Assembly (NCBI GenBank): GCA_043745255.1
Contig: JAYTTC010000250.1
Coordinates: 1-27,235, forward strand
Source of the DNA: Verrucomicrobiales bacterium
GTDB lineage: Bacteria; Verrucomicrobiota; Verrucomicrobiia; Limisphaerales; UBA11320
Direction: 5' to 3'
DNA: 27,235 nucleotides
This document shows positions 1,604 to 24,374 of this stretch, in pieces. The notes beneath the pieces are model-generated. The model saw only the letters and a list, made by a program, of their open reading frames with translations. It made no database searches and was not told where the DNA came from. Position 1 is the stretch's first letter, and the number at the start of each line of letters is the position of its first letter. A program made the translations under genes and the position numbers.

Positions 1604-4600
1604 TGAACGACCAATCTTGCGAACAGGGCATGCGATGTTGCCTGGTTCATGGAGGTCGCGGTTCGCAAGGTCACGGTTGCGGTACCGTTCCCATTGTTGT
1701 GCGTGCCCACGTAGATCAAGTCCTGTGCTGAGGTAGTCCAATCGCTTAGCTGAGCGGAGGTTTTCACCTCGAACACGATCGAGTCCGCCAGCAGATTCCT
1801 GCGATATGAAAAGGTCACGTAGGGTGCTGCGCTTCCAGACACCATAAATTCCTGGATTCCCGCGCTGAGCACGGCGACCGAGGAGGCAACCAGAGGGTCG
1901 GAACCGATTGCATACTCAAGCAGATTGGGCAGGCCATCGCCGTCGCTGTCGCCGTTGGGATCGAGTGTGAATGGCAGACTGTCTCCCCTAGCGGGACTGC
2001 CGTTCTTGGCCGCACTGGATCGCCAATTCGATCCGAGCGAAGGGTTCGTCGGTGGCTGGGCGTAAGGAGAATTGAGAACAATGCTGTAGCCGCCGCCATC
2101 GGCGTCGATCGGCCAGGGCTCGCTGTCGCCGTAAGCAAAGCTCGTGATGACGCCACCATTTTGGTCCACCAGGGTCAGCACCTCTCCGCCATTATTCAGA
2201 CTGTCGGTGAAGGCCCCCGCGATCTCTCCCTCGGCGAGGGTGCCGTATCGGGCTTGAAACGCAGCACGGTTCGCGCACACCACGAGTCGCTTTCCAGGAG
2301 GGAGGCTCTGCGCAATCGGATCCGCACTGCTGAAGTTGAACAGCACTCCATTGGTCATCCGCACGTTGGCGAGATCGAGAGTGTTGGCGCTGATGTTGAG
2401 AAATTCGAGATACTCAAAGTCGCTCGCGCTAGTAGCAACGGCTAGCTCCGCACCTGCCGGAGGTGCGGGATTGTACATGATCTCTGAGATGATTAAATTG
2501 CCAGCAGCGGCCGGCACCGAGCCCACCACGTAAGTGGCGGTGGCGACTGGAGACCAATAGCCACTGGAAAACACCCGCGCCTTCACCGTCATGGTGGAAT
2601 TGATCGCGATCGGCCCACCGTAGACCTGGGTCGTGATCGGCGTCCCTGGTGGCACTAGAACGGTGCTCACCAGTTTCGGACTGAATAGCGCGTCGTCATC
2701 CGCAACAGTCTGATTGAGCCCGAGAATCGCCAGCACATTTTCGCCCGCACGGACCTTGGCAAGAAAGTTGGTGACCGTGTATTCCTTCTGAACCACCGAG
2801 ACGGTGTCCTTCCAGACGCTCGGTACTGCATTGGGTAGGGTATCGAACGCCGGAGTGTTGGTCGCTCGAAGATTGTAACGGGTGATCTCGATCCCGTTGA
2901 GATAAGCTACAAATCCGTCGTCCGCCCGCATCTTGAGTTTCATCGAGGCCATCGATTCGATCTGAGCTGCGCTCACCGTGAAGGGAACGCGGATGAACAC
3001 CGTCGAGCTGATGCCTTGCATGGCGGCACGGATGTCTCCATCTCCATAGGTGCCACCGCCGATATTGACGTAGAGCGGAGAGGCGTTGTCATCAAACCCA
3101 AGTCCGAGACGGCCCGTCTTCCAGTCGAGCCCAGCAGCGGTCGCGCCGAGACTAACATTGTTCCAGTCCGGGAAAAGAGCGCTGGATCCACCGTTGGCAG
3201 TCGTCGGAACGAAATAGGTGGCGGTCTGAAACTCGGGAACCAGCACCAATTCCTGCGTCGTGGGAATCGGGTAGGCTGAAGGTCGAGGATCGCTGCCATC
3301 CAGGGTGTAATAGACAGTCCCCAAGGGATAATTCTTCCCGGGAGGAGGAGTGCCGCCAAACGGCGCGATGCTCAGTGCAGTACCCAGGGGGGCGACCCCT
3401 CCCGGTCGACTGAAGATCGGTGGGCGAAGAATGGAAATCCCCCCCAGGTTCTGATCATCCACCCAGGCCAAGCGCTGCAGAATCCATTGCTTCATCGAGT
3501 CGATCTCCTCTTGGAAGGTGAAACGCTTCAAAGCGTCAGCAGGGTTCGGCCACTGCCTGGTCGCGAGGATCGGGTACTTGCCATACTGGCGGGCCGCCGG
3601 GCTTTGCACGGAAAGTGGGAGATTGTTGGACACAATGGTGCTAGTTCCATCGAGCAATAGACCCACCGCAGCGTCGATGCGTGCGGTGATGGCGGCATCA
3701 CTCCAGACGCCTCGGCGGAGTTCCCAGTAGCGGTCCCAAGTACGAATCCGGTAGTCGGGATCGGCCTGAAGCCGCGGGTACCAAAGCCCCCCGCCCAGCG
3801 ATGCGACCCCAGTCTCATCGTAAAGCCAGCCCACCGATCGATCCCCAGTGGCATAGTCCGCGTTTCCAAGCGAGATGTTGAAGTCCCAGAGCGGTCCGGC
3901 ATGCACCTTGGAACCGCGGTCCTTGTAGAAATAAGTGCTGAACACGTAACCATCCACCTGCTTGGTCAGCTCCGTCCACCACTGCGCGTCAATGAAGGAA
4001 GGCACGTCGATCCATTTTTCGTAGCCTGTAACAGGATCCCCGAAGCCGGGACCGTTCAAAGCCTTCTCGAAATCGTTCAGATAACCCTGCAGGTACTTCA
4101 CCTGCGCGAGCGAAAAGGCCTCGGGATCGTGGCTTTGTATCCCCACTCCGAAAGCGGAAGTGGTCCAGCTACTCGCCCCCGGGCTGTCCTTGTCCCGTTT
4201 GAACATATATCCGCCGGTGATGAGATTGGTGTCGGTGACCAGCGGATTGATCTTGGCGATGTTCAAACGCCCCTTGGCTCGTTTGAGTTTCTCAACCAAA
4301 AGAAACACTCCACGATAGTCATTGTAGCTCACGGGTTGCCCCGCCTCCTGGTTGTAGAACACTTCAACGAACAGACTGCGGGGTGATGCATAATCGCTTC
4401 GCGAATCATCCATGGTTGAGTACGCGAGGTAGTTTCTCATGAGCGTCTTGTCGGACCACGGTCCGTGGAGAGTCCAATCGGAATCGGCTGGAAGCCCGAG
4501 AATCGAGGCATCTTCATCGTTGCCCGTTTCGTCCCACACTTCCCACGCGTAGGAGCGTTGCGGGAAGCCCGACGAGCTCTCGCCACGCACGTGAAGGCCG

Positions 4601-6291
4601 CTCCGTCCGACGAAGTCTGGGACGTCAGTAAGATGGCTGTGCCCATTGGTGGAATCGGTGCGAAACACCACCGCATAGTTAGGACGGAAGGGCCTGCTTC
4701 CGGGACTGCTAGCAGAGTCGATATCGACTCCGAAGCTATCAAATATCAATACTGGGAGACTCGATGAAAACGGCGCTCCGGTGTTCGCGAACCGCAGGAG
4801 CGAGGTATCCAGTTTGAGGAAGGTCCGACTGCTGGCGCGACCCGGAAGTCGACCGGGCATGAATACCCGGGCCCGAATGGTCCGCGAGTTGGTGATGGAA
4901 AATGGACCGCTATAAACTGCGGACGACTCATCCGGAATCGCGTTGTTCAGAGTGTAGCGCACTACCGCATTGGCAGCCTTGGGGGCACTGATGCTCAGAG
5001 TGACCGGTTCGGAATTGGTAAGCACCCCGCCCTGACGCGAATAGACAATGTCCTCGGCAGGGACGCCATCCGCCACCAGGCTCACGTTCTTCTTCAGCGG
5101 GGTGGGAGTCTCCAGGTAGCCGCGCACCCGAGTACTGCCAACTTCTCCGTAAGCAATATCCAACTTTTGCGGGCCATAGGTGTATTCGGAAGCGACTGTC
5201 AAATCTGGCCGGATCAGAGCCAGGTAACCACCGGACTTGGGAAGTGTGAAATTCGCATGCCAGGTCCCATTGGTGGGGCTTCGATCTTTACCCGAGGCAA
5301 AGACGATTCGATATTGGTTTCCAGGAACGGTCGCACTGGGCAATGGCCACTGGGTCTTGTTGGTGGGATCTGTGGTCAGGAACCAGCCGGCCAAGCTTAA
5401 GAGCGTGCCCCCGCCGTTGTAGATCTCGATCCAATCGGGAGTTTCGAGATCGTCGTCTTCGAGCGAATTTTTATTGTCGGCCACAAACTCCGAGATGATA
5501 AAGCCGCCGGTGTTGACACTGGCCGTGGGTGTGGTCTTGACCTGCAAATTGTCGATGAGGACGGTCTGCGAAACGGTTTCCCCAGTCCGGGCAGCGATCG
5601 CGAAGCGATCGCCAATCATGGCCGAAAATCCAGGCACGGCAAAATTGTTGGCCACCGTCGCGCTGGCGTAGGTGATATCCACCCCTTGGGAGTCCCAATG
5701 AATGGAGATGTTGCGCGAAGTGGCGTCGTAGAAGAACGTTTGCGGGAAAGTTCCCAATTTCACACGATCCGCATAAATTGCAATTTCCCCCTGGGTCTGC
5801 CCGTTGGCTACGTCCACAAAGGTTCGGAACCCCACCACCAGCCCCTTGGGCAGGGCGTAACCCAGCTCTCCATCTGCATCCTCAGGCGGAATGTCGCCGA
5901 AAGAAACAGAGAACCCGTTTCCGGGGAGACCCGTCGCCGCCATCTTCAACCCAAAGCTCAAGGTAAACGCGGAGATGTCCTGCCCGGGGTCGAGATCCGA
6001 CACTTTTAAGGTGGCCAAGGTATTGGTCACACCCTCCACGGAGAGACGGAGCGCGTTGGTCGAAACGGAGGCCACCGGCACCGGGGGTGTTCCGATCCCT
6101 GTGCTGGTGAGAGTCAGCCCGTCGTTCCAAACATCGGAACCGGCCACGGTACCATTTGGGAAGGTGAAAGGTTGCGGACCATAGCTTCCCGCCTGCGCAA
6201 CCCTAGATCCTGTGGAGAGCGCGAGCAGAGTGAAAAGCGAGACAGCGACACCTCGGGTGGAGGCCAGAAGGAGTAAGAACTTCGTTTGCAT
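1597..6291 (-). CDS. Large secreted multidomain protein: lectin-like N-domain, lamin tail domain, chitobiase/beta-hexosaminidase C-terminal-like domain, CotH kinase, second CHB-like domain with insert, second LTD, Verrucomicrobia-type C-terminal domain
   Basis: ATG at 6291 gives a signal-peptide-like N-terminus (MQTKFLLLLA...VAQA). Motifs: IISEFVADN..DWIEIYN (LTD), VRYTLN..P and YYTLDGSDPR (CHB-like), RGESS..FP, DKTLMRNYL, VDGY, PLWDFN (CotH), IISEIMYNP (LTD), DSDGDG..NLLEY...FARL (C-terminal tail). The ORF track extends 11 codons further, to 6324. Confidence 0.9.
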   Translation of the reverse strand: MQTKFLLLLASTRGVAVSLFTLLALSTGSRVAQAGSYGPQPFTFPNGTVAGSDVWNDGLTLTSTGIGTPPVPVASVSTNALRLSVEGVTNTLATLKVSDLDPGQDISAFTLSFGLKMAATGLPGNGFSVSFGDIPPEDADGELGYALPKGLVVGFRTFVDVANGQTQGEIAIYADRVKLGTFPQTFFYDATSRNISIHWDSQGVDITYASATVANNFAVPGFSAMIGDRFAIAARTGETVSQTVLIDNLQVKTTPTASVNTGGFIISEFVADNKNSLEDDDLETPDWIEIYNGGGTLLSLAGWFLTTDPTNKTQWPLPSATVPGNQYRIVFASGKDRSPTNGTWHANFTLPKSGGYLALIRPDLTVASEYTYGPQKLDIAYGEVGSTRVRGYLETPTPLKKNVSLVADGVPAEDIVYSRQGGVLTNSEPVTLSISAPKAANAVVRYTLNNAIPDESSAVYSGPFSITNSRTIRARVFMPGRLPGRASSRTFLKLDTSLLRFANTGAPFSSSLPVLIFDSFGVDIDSASSPGSRPFRPNYAVVFRTDSTNGHSHLTDVPDFVGRSGLHVRGESSSGFPQRSYAWEVWDETGNDEDASILGLPADSDWTLHGPWSDKTLMRNYLAYSTMDDSRSDYASPRSLFVEVFYNQEAGQPVSYNDYRGVFLLVEKLKRAKGRLNIAKINPLVTDTNLITGGYMFKRDKDSPGASSWTTSAFGVGIQSHDPEAFSLAQVKYLQGYLNDFEKALNGPGFGDPVTGYEKWIDVPSFIDAQWWTELTKQVDGYVFSTYFYKDRGSKVHAGPLWDFNISLGNADYATGDRSVGWLYDETGVASLGGGLWYPRLQADPDYRIRTWDRYWELRRGVWSDAAITARIDAAVGLLLDGTSTIVSNNLPLSVQSPAARQYGKYPILATRQWPNPADALKRFTFQEEIDSMKQWILQRLAWVDDQNLGGISILRPPIFSRPGGVAPLGTALSIAPFGGTPPPGKNYPLGTVYYTLDGSDPRPSAYPIPTTQELVLVPEFQTATYFVPTTANGGSSALFPDWNNVSLGATAAGLDWKTGRLGLGFDDNASPLYVNIGGGTYGDGDIRAAMQGISSTVFIRVPFTVSAAQIESMASMKLKMRADDGFVAYLNGIEITRYNLRATNTPAFDTLPNAVPSVWKDTVSVVQKEYTVTNFLAKVRAGENVLAILGLNQTVADDDALFSPKLVSTVLVPPGTPITTQVYGGPIAINSTMTVKARVFSSGYWSPVATATYVVGSVPAAAGNLIISEIMYNPAPPAGAELAVATSASDFEYLEFLNISANTLDLANVRMTNGVLFNFSSADPIAQSLPPGKRLVVCANRAAFQARYGTLAEGEIAGAFTDSLNNGGEVLTLVDQNGGVITSFAYGDSEPWPIDADGGGYSIVLNSPYAQPPTNPSLGSNWRSSAAKNGSPARGDSLPFTLDPNGDSDGDGLPNLLEYAIGSDPLVASSVAVLSAGIQEFMVSGSAAPYVTFSYRRNLLADSIVFEVKTSAQLSDWTTSAQDLIYVGTHNNGNGTATVTLRTATSMNQATSHALFARLVVHQ

Positions 6292-18446: not shown

Positions 18447-19556
18447 ATGAACCTGACCATCGCGAAGGAGCAGTTGCTCGCAGGGTTGCAGTCGGTGCAG
18501 AATGTCGTCAGCACGCGCACGACTCTGCCCGTGCTCTCGAATGTCCTACTGCGCGCCGAGCAGGATCGCCTGGTGCTCACTGCGACCGACCTCGACGTTA
18601 CCATCTCGTGCGCCGTCACCGCGACCATCAAGCGCCCGGGATCCACCACCATTCCGGTAAAGAAGATCTTCAGCATCGTCCGTGAGCTGAGCGTTGCTGA
18701 GATCGAACTGGAGACCGACGACAAGAATGTAACCAGCGTTCGAGCGGGGGCTTCCTTCTTCAAGATCCGCGGTCTGGGGCCGGAAGAGTTTCCGGCGATG
18801 CCCAAGTTCGCGGAGGATCGCAAGGTGGAGCTTCCACAGGAGAAGATGAGGACGATGCTCAAGCGAACCGCGTTCGCCACCTCCTCCGACGAGAGCCGCT
18901 ACGTGCTCAACGGAATCTTTTTCAGCCTCAAGGAACAGAAGCTCACACTGGTGGCCACCGATGGACGCCGACTCGCCATGGCCGAGGAAGAGGCCGATGT
19001 CTCCGAGAAAAGCCAGGGCGATTTCATCGTTCCAAGCAAGACGGTGACCGAGCTAGGTCGACTGCTTTCTGACAAAGGGCAGGTCCAGTTGCTCGTGGGT
19101 GAGAACCAAGCGTGTTTCAATCTAAGCGACGAGAAGGGCACCGGTGTCACCATCATCACCAAGCTGATCGAGGGCAACTATCCCAACTATCGACAAGTGA
19201 TTCCGGGCGAGGCGAAGGAACGGATCGCCATCGGACGCGAGGAGCTGCTGCACGCACTCCGGCGTGCCGAGATCATGACCAGCGAGAAGCAGAACTCGGT
19301 GAAACTCGCGTTCACGAAAAACAATCTGGCCATCACCGCCAACTCGCCCGATATCGGTGAGGCGCAGGAATCCCTGGCGATTAACTACAAGGGTCGCGAT
19401 GTCAGCATCGCCTTCAACCCGGGATATCTTCTGGATCCCTTGACCGCCCTGGCGAACGATGAGGTGTTCCTTGAGCTGATCGATGAGCTCAGTCCCGGGG
19501 TTCTCAAGATCAATGGACCGTTCCTTTACGTTGTCATGCCCATGCGGCTGAGCTAA
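18447..19556 (+). CDS. dnaN: DNA polymerase III beta sliding clamp
   Basis: TLPVLSNVLL, ATDLD, R.VLNG, VATDGRRLA, LIEG.YPNY..VIP, IAFNP.YL.D.L, YV.MPMRL. Confidence 0.97.
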   Translation: MNLTIAKEQLLAGLQSVQNVVSTRTTLPVLSNVLLRAEQDRLVLTATDLDVTISCAVTATIKRPGSTTIPVKKIFSIVRELSVAEIELETDDKNVTSVRAGASFFKIRGLGPEEFPAMPKFAEDRKVELPQEKMRTMLKRTAFATSSDESRYVLNGIFFSLKEQKLTLVATDGRRLAMAEEEADVSEKSQGDFIVPSKTVTELGRLLSDKGQVQLLVGENQACFNLSDEKGTGVTIITKLIEGNYPNYRQVIPGEAKERIAIGREELLHALRRAEIMTSEKQNSVKLAFTKNNLAITANSPDIGEAQESLAINYKGRDVSIAFNPGYLLDPLTALANDEVFLELIDELSPGVLKINGPFLYVVMPMRLS

Positions 19557-19567
19557 CGAATGGGCGA

Positions 19568-19591
19568 GTGGCGGCGTTAAGGCGCCGCCAC
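19568..19591 (+). terminator. GC-rich hairpin after dnaN
   Basis: GTGGCGGCG-TTAAGG-CGCCGCCAC, a perfect 9 bp stem 12 bp after the stop. No U-tract follows. Confidence 0.4.
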
Positions 19592-19748
19592 CGGACCCGG
19601 CGCAATCGCTGACCGGACCACGGAGGGGGGTCGTCAGTTGGGTTTCGAATTGACTCGGTGCCGCTTGGTGCCGTTTCCCTGACTCCCCTCGGTTTCTTTC
19701 ACAGGCTTCTTAGGTTGAATAACGCCCCGAGATTCCTTCACGGCTCGT

Positions 19749-19774
19749 GCATCCGTTTTGAGGCCGCATCCGTA
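19749..19774 (+). promoter_or_regulatory. Candidate ECF (SigK/RskA-type) promoter for the DUF4331 operon
   Basis: GCATCC-N15-CCGTA, 75 bp upstream of ATG 19850. Resembles my recollection of the mycobacterial SigK motif CCATCC-N15-CCGAA. Confidence 0.45.
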
Positions 19775-19849
19775 TTGCCTGTGTTCATGCGCACCTGGCT
19801 TGGTTTCCGGGTGGGGCATGGACCGAGAAAATAAACTGCCCAACCCATC

Positions 19850-21457
19850 ATGAAACAACGAACCTTTCGCCTCCTTGCGACCACTGCCTTCGCGGGCTTG
19901 GCTGCGCTCACACTCAGGGCTTCCAGTCACCGAGAAGCTCCCATGATCACCAGCATGCCCAAGCTGGACTGCTCGGACTTTTACGCTTTCAACAGCTACG
20001 AGCCGGGCCGTTCCAACTACGTGACCCTCATCGCAAATTACATCCCGTTGCAGGATGCCTATGGCGGTCCAAACTATTTCACCATGGCCACCAATGCGGT
20101 GTACGAGATTCACATCGACACCGATGGTGACGCGGTGGAAGACCTCACCTTCCAGTTTCATTTCCATCAGGAGTATCGCGGGATCACGCTGGGCATCGGG
20201 CCGGAGGGGAATCGACGTACCAATGCTATTCCCCTAGTCGTTGCAGGCCAGGTCACCAAGGACAGTTCTGCAGCGCTCAACTTGCAGGAGCAGTACACCC
20301 TCGTGGTGTTGGAGGGGCCTCGTCGCAACGCGACTTCGAAGATGCCTGTCTTCAATCTGCAAACGGGTGGGATCGATTTCATCAAGCCGGTTGACAATAT
20401 CGGAAACAAGACGCTTCCAGATTACACGGCCTACGCAGACCAGTACGTGTATGAGGTCCTCATTCCCGGTTGCCCGGACAAGGCGAGGATGTTCATCGGT
20501 CAGCGCAAGGATCCATTCGTGGTCAACCTGGGGGAAACTTTTGACCTCCTCAACATCAGCACCAGCCCGCTTGGGCCGGTCGATGCGAACAAGGACAGTC
20601 TAGCTGATAAGAATGTGACCTCTATCTGCCTGGAGCTTCCCAAGAGCTGCTTGCGCAAGGGAGCTCACAACGTTATCGGAGCCTGGAGCACCGCCAGCCT
20701 GATCCAAGGGCATGACTTTGTTCAGGTCTCCAGACTCGGAATGCCTTTGGTTAATGAGGTGGTGATTGGTCTTCCGGATAAGGACAAGTTCAACGCGAGC
20801 GAACCGAAGGATGATCCGCAATTCATTGATTACATCACTCACCCTACCTTTCCAGCGTTGGTCGAATTGCTCTATGGAGCTGCGGGAGCCAAGGCTCCCG
20901 CAATCCCGCGCAATGATCTGGTAGCGGTCTTTGCCACCGGCCTTGCCGGGCTCAACGCAAACGGCAGCGTAGGCGAGATGTGCCGTCTCAACCTGGACAT
21001 TCCTGCCCGCGCCGCTGCCGAGCAAAAAAATCTAGGAGCTCTCGCGGGGGATACGTCGGGCTTCCCCAACGGACGGCGTCCCGGAGATGATATCGTCGAC
21101 ATCGTACTTCGCGTTGCGATGGGTGCACTCGTGCCCGATGCCCCAAACAAGGACCTGCCCTTCACGGATGGTGCTTATGTGGATGCCAGTTTCTTTGGCG
21201 AGAAGTTCCCGTATCTGCGGCCGCCGCTGAAGGGTTCTCCCAATGATCCGACCATTGAAATCCTGCTCAAGACTGCCGCCACTGCGGCCGGGCCCTACCA
21301 GAACGCCACCGGTGTGAAGTGGAACGGGGATCAGCAAACGCTCACCGCCGACAAGACTTCCTCTCCAAACGGATTCTACAAACTGGAGGCGAATGGGAAG
21401 GTGGGTTTCAACGGGATCCGCCTCGACGGGGATAAGGTGAAGCTGGGACTGAAGTGA
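19850..21457 (+). CDS. Secreted DUF4331 domain protein with an extra C-terminal tail
   Basis: Signal peptide then SSHREAP, D.SDFYAF.SYE, LIANYIP.Q...GGPNYF, F.GQRKDPF, QVSRLG.PLVNE, GFPNGRRPGDD, FPYL..P: all DUF4331 hallmarks. Confidence 0.92.
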   Translation: MKQRTFRLLATTAFAGLAALTLRASSHREAPMITSMPKLDCSDFYAFNSYEPGRSNYVTLIANYIPLQDAYGGPNYFTMATNAVYEIHIDTDGDAVEDLTFQFHFHQEYRGITLGIGPEGNRRTNAIPLVVAGQVTKDSSAALNLQEQYTLVVLEGPRRNATSKMPVFNLQTGGIDFIKPVDNIGNKTLPDYTAYADQYVYEVLIPGCPDKARMFIGQRKDPFVVNLGETFDLLNISTSPLGPVDANKDSLADKNVTSICLELPKSCLRKGAHNVIGAWSTASLIQGHDFVQVSRLGMPLVNEVVIGLPDKDKFNASEPKDDPQFIDYITHPTFPALVELLYGAAGAKAPAIPRNDLVAVFATGLAGLNANGSVGEMCRLNLDIPARAAAEQKNLGALAGDTSGFPNGRRPGDDIVDIVLRVAMGALVPDAPNKDLPFTDGAYVDASFFGEKFPYLRPPLKGSPNDPTIEILLKTAATAAGPYQNATGVKWNGDQQTLTADKTSSPNGFYKLEANGKVGFNGIRLDGDKVKLGLK

Positions 21458-21465
21458 ATTAGCGG

Positions 21466-21496
21466 GCCGCGCGGTCGGGTGTTCCTGCCGCGCGGC
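21466..21496 (+). other. Intergenic GC-rich hairpin between the DUF4331 and TPR genes
   Basis: GCCGCGCGG...CCGCGCGGC 9 bp stem with further inner pairing; no U-tract. Confidence 0.45.
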
Positions 21497-21513
21497 ATCG
21501 ATGGAATCAGCGC

Positions 21514-22701
21514 GTGAACCGATTAAGAAATAGGGTTGGGGGATGGATGCTCGGGATTCTGTTGGGATTCGCGACCCAACAGAGCCTGGCATCTCCCCGG
21601 GTGCCCACGGACGATTCCGAGGTGCTCGAACGTCTGCCCCAAGTCCCGACGCTTTTCGCCGGTCGAGGCAAGGCTGCGGTCGCGCGGTCGCCGGATCCAA
21701 TAAGCGCCGCGATCGAAGCCCGTCGCTGGTTAGAGCTCAACCGTGCTGAGTCGGATCCCCGGTATCTTGGCCGCGCGCAGGCGGTGCTCTCTCCCTGGTG
21801 GCATCAGACCGATCCACCCATTGAGATCCGATTGTTGCGCGCGACGGTGCGTCAGAGTCTTCATGATTTTCAAGGGGCGATCACCGACTTAAATGAAGTT
21901 CTTCGTGTCGATCCTTCCAATGCCCAGGCGTGGCTCACCAAGTCCTCGATCCACACGTTGCGTGGCGAGTGGGTGGAGGCTTGCGAGGCCGTGGTTCGGC
22001 TCACCCGGCTCACGAGTCGTCTTGTGAGTGCGACGGCGGCCGCTTCCGTGTTGAGCGTGCGCGGCCAGGAGACGGAGGCCTGTGGGCTGCTGCGCAATGC
22101 CCTTCGAGAAAATCCCACAGCACCCGGGTCGGTCCGCCTCTGGGCGCTCACCCTGTTGGGAGAAGTGGACACCTGGATGGACCGTGATACCGAGGCTGAG
22201 CTGCATTTCAAGCAGGCGATGGAGCTGGGCCTCCGGGATGGCTATCTGCTCGCGAGCTATTCTGACTTCCTACTGGGCCAGCGCCGGTTCGAGCAGGCCG
22301 CTAGGCTGGTCGAACCCGAGACCCGTTCCGACAATCTGTTGCTGCGGCTCGCCCTTGCGGAGTCGAACCTCAATCCATCGCCTCCCCTGTTTCAGGAACA
22401 TGTCAGAATCCTCGGAGAGCGGTTTGCCGCCGCCCGGGCTCGTGGAGAGGCGATCCACCAACGGGAAGAGGCTCGCTACCAGCTTGAACTCCTCCATAAG
22501 CCCGCACGCGCCTTGGAACTGGCCCGCGAGAATTGGGGGATTCAAAAGGAACCCGCCGACACGAAAATCCTACTCGAGTCCGCCCTGGCAGTGCAGGATG
22601 CCGCCACCGTTGAACAGGTTCGCGATTGGATGAAGACCAGTCGGTTCGAAGATCGACGGATCCTCCGGCTGCTGGAATCCCAGCAACCGGCTTCTCGATG
22701 A
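21514..22701 (+). CDS. Secreted tetratricopeptide repeat protein (DUF4331/HupE-associated type)
   Basis: Signal-like N-terminus; P..D.EVLERLP, SDPRYLGRAQA.L.PWW, A.V.QS.HDF, DP.NAQAWL, DNLLLRLA, H.REEARY, LA..NW..Q.EP.D. Start is GTG 21514 or ATG 21544. Confidence 0.82.
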   Translation: MNRLRNRVGGWMLGILLGFATQQSLASPRVPTDDSEVLERLPQVPTLFAGRGKAAVARSPDPISAAIEARRWLELNRAESDPRYLGRAQAVLSPWWHQTDPPIEIRLLRATVRQSLHDFQGAITDLNEVLRVDPSNAQAWLTKSSIHTLRGEWVEACEAVVRLTRLTSRLVSATAAASVLSVRGQETEACGLLRNALRENPTAPGSVRLWALTLLGEVDTWMDRDTEAELHFKQAMELGLRDGYLLASYSDFLLGQRRFEQAARLVEPETRSDNLLLRLALAESNLNPSPPLFQEHVRILGERFAAARARGEAIHQREEARYQLELLHKPARALELARENWGIQKEPADTKILLESALAVQDAATVEQVRDWMKTSRFEDRRILRLLESQQPASR

Positions 22702-23864
22702 GATTGGCGATTGAGATTTTGACTTCGCATCCACTGCGGCGGTGGGTGCGCGCTGCCTTTGTACTCGGAGTCATGCTTCAGTGTGCCGCACCTCGAGCCT
22801 TCGCTCATTCCTCGAGTGACGCGTACATCACGCTCACTTTCACCAATCAGTCCGTCCTGGGCCGTATTGACCTGGCACTGCGGGATGTTGATGCGTTGTT
22901 CGGGTTGGACGATGATGGCGATGCCCATGTCACCTGGGGAGAGCTCAAGAAACATCAGACGGAGCTCTTTCAATACCTCGGCACGAATCTCGTTTTTCGG
23001 GGGGAGGGTCGAGCTCTCTCGCTCGGTTCCCCGGAACTCTCGGTGGATGAGCATGCAGGTGCGATGTTCGCCGTGACTCGTTTCCTCCTTCCTTCCGCCG
23101 CGACAACTCGGGTGTTGGAAGTCGACTATCACTGCGTGTTTGAGGTGGATGGGTTGCATCGTGCGATCCTCAAGCTGGAGCGGGAGGGCAACGTGACGAC
23201 GGGCTTGTTCAGTCCCGAGCAAACGCATCTGCGTTTCGAGTTCAGCCTCCCAATCGGAGCCACCTCAGGACTGCAGAGTTTTATTCGAGATGGCGTGCGG
23301 CATATCTGGACCGGATACGATCACATCCTCTTCCTTCTCGCTCTCCTGTTGCCCGCAGTGGTCCGTCGTGAGCAGGGAACCTGGCAGGCTGTGACCGCCC
23401 TGCGTCCTGCGCTCTGGAGAGTGCTTCAGACTGTGACTGCCTTTACCGTGGCGCACTCCATCACTCTGAGCCTTGCAGCATTCAACCTGATCCACCTTTC
23501 CCCTCAGTTCGTGGAGCCGGTCATCGCGGCCAGCGTCGCGGTCGCCGCTGCCAATAACCTCCGTCCCTTCTTTCTCGAGCGCGGTTGGATGGTTGCCTTC
23601 GGGTTCGGGCTGATCCACGGATTCGGTTTTGCCAGCGTGCTCCAGGAACTTGATCTCGCAGGACAGTCGCTCCTCTGGCCCCTGCTCGGGTTCAATCTCG
23701 GTGTCGAGCTCGGCCAGGCCACTCTCGTGCTCCTCTTCGTTCCGCTGGCTTACGGACTTCGCCATACCCGCTTCTACAGTGTCGGTGCACTGCGATTTGG
23801 CTCGGTCGGAATCGTCCTCATCGCCACCGCTTGGTTCATCGAGCGCCTCATCACCGGGCACTGA
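22698..23864 (+). CDS. HupE/UreJ family membrane protein with an N-terminal extracytoplasmic domain
   Basis: ATGA overlap with the TPR stop. AFA|HSSSDAY; GVRHIWTGYDHILFL, FTVAHSITL, FGLIHGFGFA, FNLGVELGQ. Confidence 0.9.
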   Translation: MRLAIEILTSHPLRRWVRAAFVLGVMLQCAAPRAFAHSSSDAYITLTFTNQSVLGRIDLALRDVDALFGLDDDGDAHVTWGELKKHQTELFQYLGTNLVFRGEGRALSLGSPELSVDEHAGAMFAVTRFLLPSAATTRVLEVDYHCVFEVDGLHRAILKLEREGNVTTGLFSPEQTHLRFEFSLPIGATSGLQSFIRDGVRHIWTGYDHILFLLALLLPAVVRREQGTWQAVTALRPALWRVLQTVTAFTVAHSITLSLAAFNLIHLSPQFVEPVIAASVAVAAANNLRPFFLERGWMVAFGFGLIHGFGFASVLQELDLAGQSLLWPLLGFNLGVELGQATLVLLFVPLAYGLRHTRFYSVGALRFGSVGIVLIATAWFIERLITGH

Positions 23865-23866
23865 TC

Positions 23867-23896
23867 GGGGTCCGCAGGCTCCGTCGCGGACCTTCT
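23867..23896 (+). terminator. Possible terminator hairpin after the HupE/UreJ gene
   Basis: GGTCCGC (23869-23875) pairs with GCGGACC (23886-23892), followed only by TTCTC. Confidence 0.3.
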
Positions 23897-23912
23897 CACG
23901 CCTCATCACTGA

Positions 23913-24374
<462 letters not shown>

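Follow-up and report, generated by a model that had tools for sequence, protein, structure and literature searches.

A DUF4331–TPR–HupE/UreJ-2 gene trio as a candidate envelope module for the acquisition of nickel- or copper-type metals

Gene organization and conservation of the trio

The DNA analysed here (the window) is an entire contig of 27,235 bases (C250) from a sediment-metagenome assembly that is 82% complete and comprises 841 contigs and 4.5 Mb. The closest relatives of the proteins it encodes belong to the Verrucomicrobiota (Verrucomicrobiae/Limisphaerales). Our subject is a set of three genes coding for a DUF4331 protein, an exported tetratricopeptide repeat (TPR) protein and a permease of the HupE/UreJ-2 type. 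Their positions are as follows:

19850-21457, + strand: DUF4331 gene (535 residues; PF14224)
21514-22701, + strand: TPR gene (395 residues; GTG start), encoding an exported TPR protein
22698-23864, + strand: HupE_UreJ_2 permease gene (388 residues; PF13795)

Hydrophobic N-terminal leaders are present on the DUF4331, TPR and permease proteins alike. The TPR and permease genes are coupled by an ATGA overlap, in which the permease ATG (22698-22700) shares bases with the TGA of the TPR gene (22699-22701). An earlier note on this DNA, made from the sequence by a model, had described three co-oriented exported or membrane genes with the last two coupled by ATGA, and the open reading frames (ORFs) and the overlap at 22698-22701 bear this description out. 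Each family of the trio occurs once across the window's own assembly. The gene caller placed the start of the DUF4331 gene at Met32 (P0001, 504 residues); homologues span the entire 535-residue frame, and the longer form with its signal peptide is therefore the correct one. The junction between dnaN and the DUF4331 gene is spanned without differences by DNA contigs of two sequencing runs, possibly from the source samples, and the window sequence was found in none of the RNA sequencing runs searched.

Conservation of the trio was examined in 151 genomes of the window's order and in 251 gammaproteobacterial genomes. DUF4331 is present in 43 and PF13795 in 89 of the 151 genomes of the order, and 40 of the 43 DUF4331-positive genomes also contain PF13795 (odds ratio 16), mostly on the same contig and no more than 3 kb away. 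In a phylum-wide sample, just 2 of 251 genomes contain DUF4331, which within that sample is concentrated in the window's order.

Fetched loci were scanned with hidden Markov models (HMMs) built from the window proteins and their relatives, with DUF4331, the TPR family, the Ang-like N-domain (see below) and the HupE membrane domain counted as the full set. The full set is found in 13 of 16 type-1 loci of the order, whose DUF4331 proteins are 52–74% identical to that of the window, and in 5 of 5 type-2 loci, where DUF4331 is divergent (~27% identical) and the TPR gene comes first. Among the Gammaproteobacteria, 27 of the 251 genomes contain DUF4331, one of which (the unpublished G441) was excluded from the locus fetch and the statistics; 14 of the 20 loci fetched contain the full set. 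The permease is missing from one locus (L047). At least four gene orders are seen (DUF–TPR–HupE, TPR–DUF–HupE, DUF–HupE–TPR and one convergent; gammaproteobacterial loci), and this maintenance of linkage across several gene orders rules out a chance neighbourhood. The DUF4331–TPR–permease trio is a real, conserved functional unit. Its culturable carriers include strains of Noviherbaspirillum, Pseudoalteromonas and Psychrobacter.

A variant arrangement is found in Idiomarina sp. A28L (L004), where DUF4331 is accompanied by a small ORF and a TPR gene and the operon closes with an ORF of 163 residues (L004:11152-11643), followed by a large ORF on the opposite strand. The 163-residue product has a histidine directly after its leader (A/H) and bears a weak likeness to the Ang-like domain (hhalign probability 46%).

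N-terminal histidine motifs of the exported proteins

The DUF4331 protein matches PF14224 over the full length of the profile (E 1e-135; 453.7 bits, gathering cut-off 27; profile positions 1-421 of 421). It is divided as follows, with the slash marking the predicted cleavage site:

residues 1-24, + strand: predicted signal peptide
19922-19930, + strand: codons of the predicted mature start Ser-Ser-His, within the conserved sequence A/SSHREAP
residues 25-459, + strand: DUF4331 domain (PF14224)
residues ~466-535 (21245-21454 of the window), + strand: extra C-terminal beta domain, with strands at 471-534 modelled with good confidence

An X-X-His sequence directly follows the leader, which ends in a small residue, in 43 of 43 DUF4331 proteins examined. 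The tip is Ser-Ser-His in 39 of them and Thr-Ser-His, Ala-Asn-His or Ala-Ser-His in the rest. The tip histidine (H27) is conserved in 88% of 51 diverse representatives and is the sole conserved histidine of DUF4331. The same representatives share no conserved Cys or Met, and many Asp, Asn and Gly positions are conserved, including those of a DxDGD loop. Since an A-x-A pattern precedes Ser-Ser in the leader, the sequence favours cleavage before Ser-Ser-His, which would create an amino-terminal Cu and Ni (ATCUN)-type NH2-X-X-His site, with a residue other than Pro at position 2; cleavage after Ala-Ser-Ser might also occur and would leave an N-terminal His.

In the AlphaFold2 (AF2) model of the DUF4331 protein (pLDDT 91.7, pTM 0.84), a disordered tail (residues 18-26) is followed by a beta-rich core, a helical subdomain (~300-365) and the C-terminal beta domain (~471-534). 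The C-terminal extension of ~70 residues is a feature of Verrucomicrobiota DUF4331 proteins. A Foldseek search with this model found no usable relative in the PDB (TM at most 0.13), and the best Z score of a wide VIA-align search (7.5) is at the noise level for models without a match. The clusters of the AlphaFold database returned DUF4331 members only, and the ESM Atlas gave no match beyond the family. The family is large, with 4,759 clusters at 50% identity matching at E ≤ 0.001. Literature searches for DUF4331 and PF14224 returned nothing relevant, and NCBIfam has no specific model for the DUF4331 protein, the TPR protein or the permease; the description of DUF4331 as uncharacterised, given in the earlier note, is in line with both results.

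One divergent DUF4331 protein (P0180; 37% identical; L058:1522-3165 and L059:926-2569) has no X-X-His tip. Its gene is flanked by glycosyltransferase and exosortase (EpsH) genes, with no permease nearby. One branch of the DUF4331 family therefore lacks the metal-type signature.

For the TPR protein, whose leader ends in SLA/SP, Pfam gives matches to generic TPR families only (residues 104-210). An HMM built from orthologues places this family next to DUF4331 in two phyla at E 1e-24 to 1e-189 and gives weak matches (1e-7 to 1e-13) 5′ of DUF4331 genes of the divergent type. Its conserved motifs include DPRYLG and PWW. The TPR protein represents a dedicated family whose members accompany DUF4331.

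The permease matches PF13795 at residues 195-356 (E 1.6e-47; 161.5 bits, gathering cut-off 24.5). Its features are as follows:

residues 1-36, + strand: predicted signal peptide (...PRAFA/HSSSD)
22806-22808, + strand: codon of His37, the mature N-terminal residue after predicted cleavage
residues 37 to ~190 (22806-23267), + strand: Ang-1-like beta-sandwich domain, from the AF2 model and the match to PDB entry 9GCE
residues 71-82 (22908-22943), + strand: EF-hand-like loop in the Ang-1-like domain, D-x-D/N-x-D-G/A-x-I/V-T-W-G-E, with D71 and E82 invariant in 29 homologues
residues 195-388 (23280-23861), + strand: HupE_UreJ_2 membrane domain (PF13795)

The histidine motifs RHIWTGYDH, AHSIT and LIHGFG, to which the earlier note had drawn attention, are present, and the channel residues H202, D208, H209, H253 and H307 are invariant in the 29 homologues. 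His37, which the same note had expected to be exposed after AFA, is likewise invariant in these homologues, its exposure following from the predicted cleavage. A leader followed directly by His is found in 32 of 32 DUF4331-linked permeases. The EF-hand-like loop coincides with weak EF-hand_5 matches in 14 of the 29 homologues, and a PDB search with the permease profile returned EF-hand proteins below the threshold.

The AF2 model of the permease (pLDDT 85.9) consists of a beta-sandwich with inserted helices (~41-181), followed by the helical membrane domain. Its top Foldseek match in the PDB is RbAng-1a, the Cu-bound Ang-1 domain of a HupE/UreJ-2 protein (9GCE; E 9.8e-6, probability 1.00, TM 0.60 by target), with 18% identity over 154 aligned columns. 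Neither phmmer nor a profile of 29 sequences reached 9GCE among the PDB sequences at E ≤ 10, and 23 of the 29 homologues give weak matches to DUF6702, a family related to Ang-1. The kinship is thus argued from the fold, the architecture and these DUF6702 matches. As modelled, the permease is a distant new member of the anglerase class described in 2025. It has its own putative capture domain of the Ang-1 type, and DUF4331 would therefore not be the sole, nor necessarily the first, catcher of the ion. The earlier proposal that DUF4331 captures a metal and the permease imports it is accordingly retained in part: metal uptake is still the best reading, and the assignment of capture to DUF4331 alone is given up.

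Promoter and proposed sigma control

A de novo dyad search of the regions upstream of DUF4331 identified a promoter motif of the extracytoplasmic function (ECF) type. In the window it is located at:

19748-19774, + strand: ECF-type promoter TGCATCC-N16-CGTA, ~100 nt 5′ of the DUF4331 start codon

Of 16 loci of the order, 15 have TGCATCC-N16-CGTA/T ahead of DUF4331, and a TGAATCC variant of the −35 element is present in two gammaproteobacterial loci. The motif also lies 5′ of the first operon gene in further gammaproteobacterial and type-2 loci, and 5′ of several sigma genes. No sigma-70-like promoter was found within 19500-24100. The pattern has 3 matches in the whole genome, where ~4 are expected by chance; the count is therefore uninformative, and only the positions tell, namely those at the DUF4331 operon and at a sigma gene on contig C430. 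The third match, which could be due to chance, is at ~1274 on the minus strand of contig C829 (L055), ~150 nt 5′ of an ORF whose N-terminus is cytochrome-P450-like. The regulon apparently consists of the DUF4331 operon and the sigma gene only.

Homologous ECF sigma genes lie beside 12 of 22 loci; their usual partner is an anti-sigma factor whose ChrR-type cupin (Cupin_7) keeps the H-x-H...E...H ligands. In two relatives of the same genus (L040, L041), the sigma/ChrR pair is located between dnaN and DUF4331. The corresponding space in the window is just 293 bp (19557-19849); the pair is absent and the promoter is kept, and no ChrR-like gene was found in the window's assembly. The pair seems to have been deleted specifically in this lineage. 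The sigma gene on contig C430 (L054, 4023-5449; sigma gene 4122-4712) encodes a protein 40–53% identical to the locus-linked sigma factors, with TGCATCC-N16-CGTT upstream and a gene for a membrane-spanning anti-sigma factor downstream. The N-domain of this anti-sigma factor resembles those of the cupin type, and the sensor module has therefore been swapped. The C430 sigma factor is the likely driver of the window's operon.

Two further observations concern the sigma/ChrR pairs and the operon. In 6 DUF4331 loci, the pair is adjoined by a gene for a conserved cytoplasmic protein of ~455 residues with an N-terminal RRSRRFG and no Pfam match (for example L046:8665-10023 on the minus strand, L035:11315-12712 on the plus strand, L049:346-1743 on the minus strand and L053:9768-11132 on the plus strand); this protein was not found in the window's assembly. 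A literature search combining ChrR and HupE returned nothing relevant. Within the operon, the 56-nt gap between the DUF4331 and TPR genes contains one predicted RNA feature:

21463-21500, + strand: GC-rich hairpin without a T-run (RNA fold −30.3 kcal/mol, z −2.0)

This hairpin could act as an intra-operon attenuator or RNA stabilizer, and the product of the first gene might thereby be set at a higher level.

Metal supply, alternative functions and related systems

The earlier note had remarked that no urease or hydrogenase gene is in the window. This is correct for the window, and neither urease nor [NiFe] hydrogenase was found in its own 82%-complete assembly. It does not hold for the lineage, since all five relatives with the trio whose assemblies are more complete encode urease, two of them hydrogenase as well. 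The urease genes of these relatives are on contigs other than that of the DUF4331 operon. In one gammaproteobacterial genome (G421, contig C55), a urease alpha gene lies ~23 kb from the DUF4331 operon; the remaining genomes checked have the two on separate contigs.

Urease is found in 25 of 43 DUF4331-positive and 27 of 108 DUF4331-negative genomes of the order (odds ratio 4.2, p 2e-4) and in 15 of 26 positive and 39 of 224 negative gammaproteobacterial genomes (odds ratio 6.5, p 2e-5), ratios that ignore shared ancestry and genome size, so that the association tilts towards nickel and does not settle the question. The control, multicopper oxidase, is present in 14 of 43 and 21 of 108 genomes of the order (odds ratio 2.0, p 0.09), with an odds ratio of 2.3 (p 0.09) in the Gammaproteobacteria; urease and multicopper oxidase are not associated with each other in the order (odds ratio 1.0). 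NicO is present in 19 of 151 genomes; among urease-positive genomes it occurs in 4 of the 25 that have DUF4331 and in 2 of the 27 that do not, and is uninformative on NiCoT/NicO complementarity. An ATCUN tip and an N-terminal His would suit Cu(II) or Ni(II), the permease family indicates Ni or Co, and the structural kin ZrgA and PA4063 bind Zn; nickel would be slightly favoured over copper as the metal carried.

Taken together, these results suggest that the trio is probably an ECF-sigma-controlled envelope module for the acquisition of scarce metal of the Ni/Cu type, built from an anglerase permease and two dedicated exported partners. The operon would be transcribed from its dedicated ECF promoter, and the DUF4331 and TPR proteins would be exported by Sec. 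Cleavage of the signal peptide would expose NH2-Ser-Ser-His on DUF4331 as an ATCUN-type site for Cu(II) or Ni(II), and the Ang-1-like domain, attached to the HupE/UreJ-2 channel of the inner-membrane permease, would display NH2-His. We infer that DUF4331 binds metal; it may capture or concentrate the ion, with the TPR protein holding the partners together or aiding assembly. The metal would then be handed on among the three proteins, and the Ang-1-like domain would take the ion and pass it to the H-x5-D-H/His cluster of the channel for transport, presumably inwards. We put forward only tentatively, and with more doubt than confidence, the broader proposal that DUF4331 is the founding member of a new class of proteins exported for metal capture and that this three-protein relay with its own ECF sigma factor is a major overlooked route for Ni (or Cu) in many phyla, feeding urease among others.

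Several observations weigh against an acquisition module of this kind. DUF4331 is large (~440 residues) and, at 51% identity between Verrucomicrobiota and Thiotrichales, is conserved more like an enzyme than a carrier; R-E-A-P after the tip His is also conserved, beyond what ATCUN chemistry needs. ATCUN sites are slow to let go of Cu(II) and Ni(II). DUF4331 occurs without partners in two loci (L045, L046), and the Idiomarina sp. A28L genome described above is without any PF13795. After 9GCE, the next structural kin of the permease, PA4063 and ZrgA, bind zinc. No urease is seen in about 42% of DUF4331 genomes, in addition to the limits of the odds ratios given above, and the promoter and ChrR-type anti-sigma factors resemble a (photo-)oxidative-stress family rather than a metal-starvation one. 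The proposal as a whole rests on computation, with DUF4331, the TPR protein and full-length HupE/UreJ-2 proteins of this type known from genes and models.

The enzyme-like size and conservation of DUF4331 would be accounted for if this protein were the client of the system: a metalloenzyme of the periplasm, perhaps acting in the response of the envelope to oxidative stress, whose N-terminal site is loaded via the TPR protein and the anglerase permease, with these two providing or exchanging the metal in the periplasm. The excess of H-R-E-A-P over ATCUN needs fits this idea, as do the promoter and ChrR-like cupin anti-sigma factors of a family known for singlet-oxygen and peroxide responses (PMC5507510, PMC4336711) and the catalytic metal sites that N-terminal His or amine groups form in lytic polysaccharide monooxygenases and nickel superoxide dismutase (PMC12537917). 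We nevertheless consider this main alternative unlikely, because DUF4331 offers no conserved His, Cys or Met for an active site beyond H27, the structure searches gave no enzyme relative, the N-terminal tail is modelled as disordered (pLDDT <50 for residues 18-26), Cu-loaded Ang-1 has no notable oxidase or peroxidase activity (PMC12537917), and the co-occurrence with urease is better suited to cytoplasmic supply.

The same capture sites could also serve to buffer, sense or detoxify excess periplasmic metal, with DUF4331 and the Ang-1 domain sequestering the ion and the permease acting as an exporter or sensor. ECF sigma systems often respond to envelope or metal stress, and the transport direction of HupE/UreJ-2 is open to this reading. 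High-affinity N-terminal sites would also fit sequestration; DUF6702, which binds Ni2+ at 5.6 pM, was termed a ‘sequesterase’ (PMC12537917). Characterised HupE/UreJ proteins are, however, described as importers in the comparative-genomics literature (PMC2667541), none of the loci examined links the trio to genes for efflux pumps, metal resistance or metallothioneins, and the association with urease, a consumer of nickel, indicates supply, which together make such a role distinctly improbable. Highly improbable, in our view, is a function unrelated to metals, with DUF4331 as a calcium-stabilized beta-sandwich protein, either a surface protein or one that binds carbohydrates, and the permease moving something else. 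The many conserved Asp/Asn/Gly loops, including DxDGD, the best structural likenesses of DUF4331, at noise level, to carbohydrate-binding modules (Sas6, Z 7.5; 4jpq), and the position of the tipless P0180 between glycosyltransferase and exosortase genes could be read in this way. Such a function leaves unexplained the invariant N-terminal His motifs on both DUF4331 and the permease, the Ni/Co-permease-type His/Asp signature kept in the membrane domain, and the match of the permease outer domain to a crystallised Cu-binding domain; P0180 is also the sole exosortase-linked member, and it lacks both the motif and a permease.

If metal acquisition by the trio is borne out, DUF4331, a large family without assigned function or solved fold, would gain a testable role. 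Anglerase permeases were described in 2025 from isolated domains, without partners or regulation (PMC12537917), and would acquire a physiological context, with a sigma factor of their own and two partners that are obligate. The few nickel/copper importers known from bacteria would be joined by a new route, which matters for nitrogen use through urease in soils, in sediments and in the sea.

The closest known relative of the regulatory arrangement is RpoE–ChrR (ECF11-type), whose consensus promoter is TGATCC-N16-CGTA (PMC5507510, PMC4336711). The −10 element and spacer are the same as in our motif, the −35 element is near-identical, and relatives of the window have the sigma/ChrR-cupin pair. 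The −35 element TGCATCC is one base off the TGATCC consensus, and the anti-sigma N-domains inspected lack the Zn-binding Cys motif. At the window's locus the pair itself is absent, and the only matching sigma factor in the assembly, that of C430, has a membrane-spanning anti-sigma factor.

ATCUN sites are known in serum albumin and at the tip of the copper importer Ctr1. The predicted mature DUF4331 shares with them the X-X-His start, a free amine and a second residue other than Pro. It differs in that the motif heads a conserved domain of 440 residues and R-E-A-P is kept as well, and in that the cleavage is a prediction. The outer domain of the permease has the fold of ZrgA from Vibrio cholerae and PA4063 from Pseudomonas aeruginosa (TM 0.56–0.68 by target), which are periplasmic Zn-binding accessories of Zur-regulated importer operons, and periplasmic metal handling would be common to all three. 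Both of those proteins stand alone, work with ABC-type systems and use His-rich Zn sites rather than a mature N-terminal His, whereas the window's locus contains no Zur or ABC genes.

HupE/UreJ proteins are established Ni/Co permeases. The sequence H202-I-W-T-G-Y-D208-H209 contains what we take to be the H-x5-D-H signature of the canonical members (PF04955; Rhizobium and cyanobacterial HupE), located at the start of the first channel helix in both, and both are multi-helix secondary permeases with further conserved His residues. The window's permease belongs to PF13795 and not to PF04955, for which it gives no match at E ≤ 1, with weak PF04955 matches in 19 of the 29 homologues. It further differs from the canonical proteins in its extra N-terminal domain for putative capture and two dedicated exported partners, and in having no adjoining urease or hydrogenase genes.

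A further close system is the Ang-1–HupE/UreJ-2 permease. RbAng-1a binds Cu2+ and Ni2+ with dissociation constants of 74 nM and 220 nM, respectively, through His1 and Asn41 (PMC12537917), and Ang-1 domains are found mainly in Pseudomonadota, next to genes for DUF4198, indigoidine-A-like proteins and PfkB (PMC12537917). The study makes no mention of DUF4331, a TPR partner, or sigma or ECF control (PMC12537917), and none of the papers searched describes either the pairing with DUF4331 and the TPR protein or control by a sigma factor. The window's permease differs from Ang-1 in its Verrucomicrobiota origin, its EF-hand-like loop and its low identity to 9GCE. In both, His comes immediately after the signal peptide, and a periplasmic beta-sandwich, which has helices inserted behind its second strand, is joined by a short linker to a PF13795 domain. 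For this architecture, Franco Cairo et al. (Nat Commun 2025, PMC12537917) proposed an Ang-1 domain that “fishes” for ions and supplies the permease with them.

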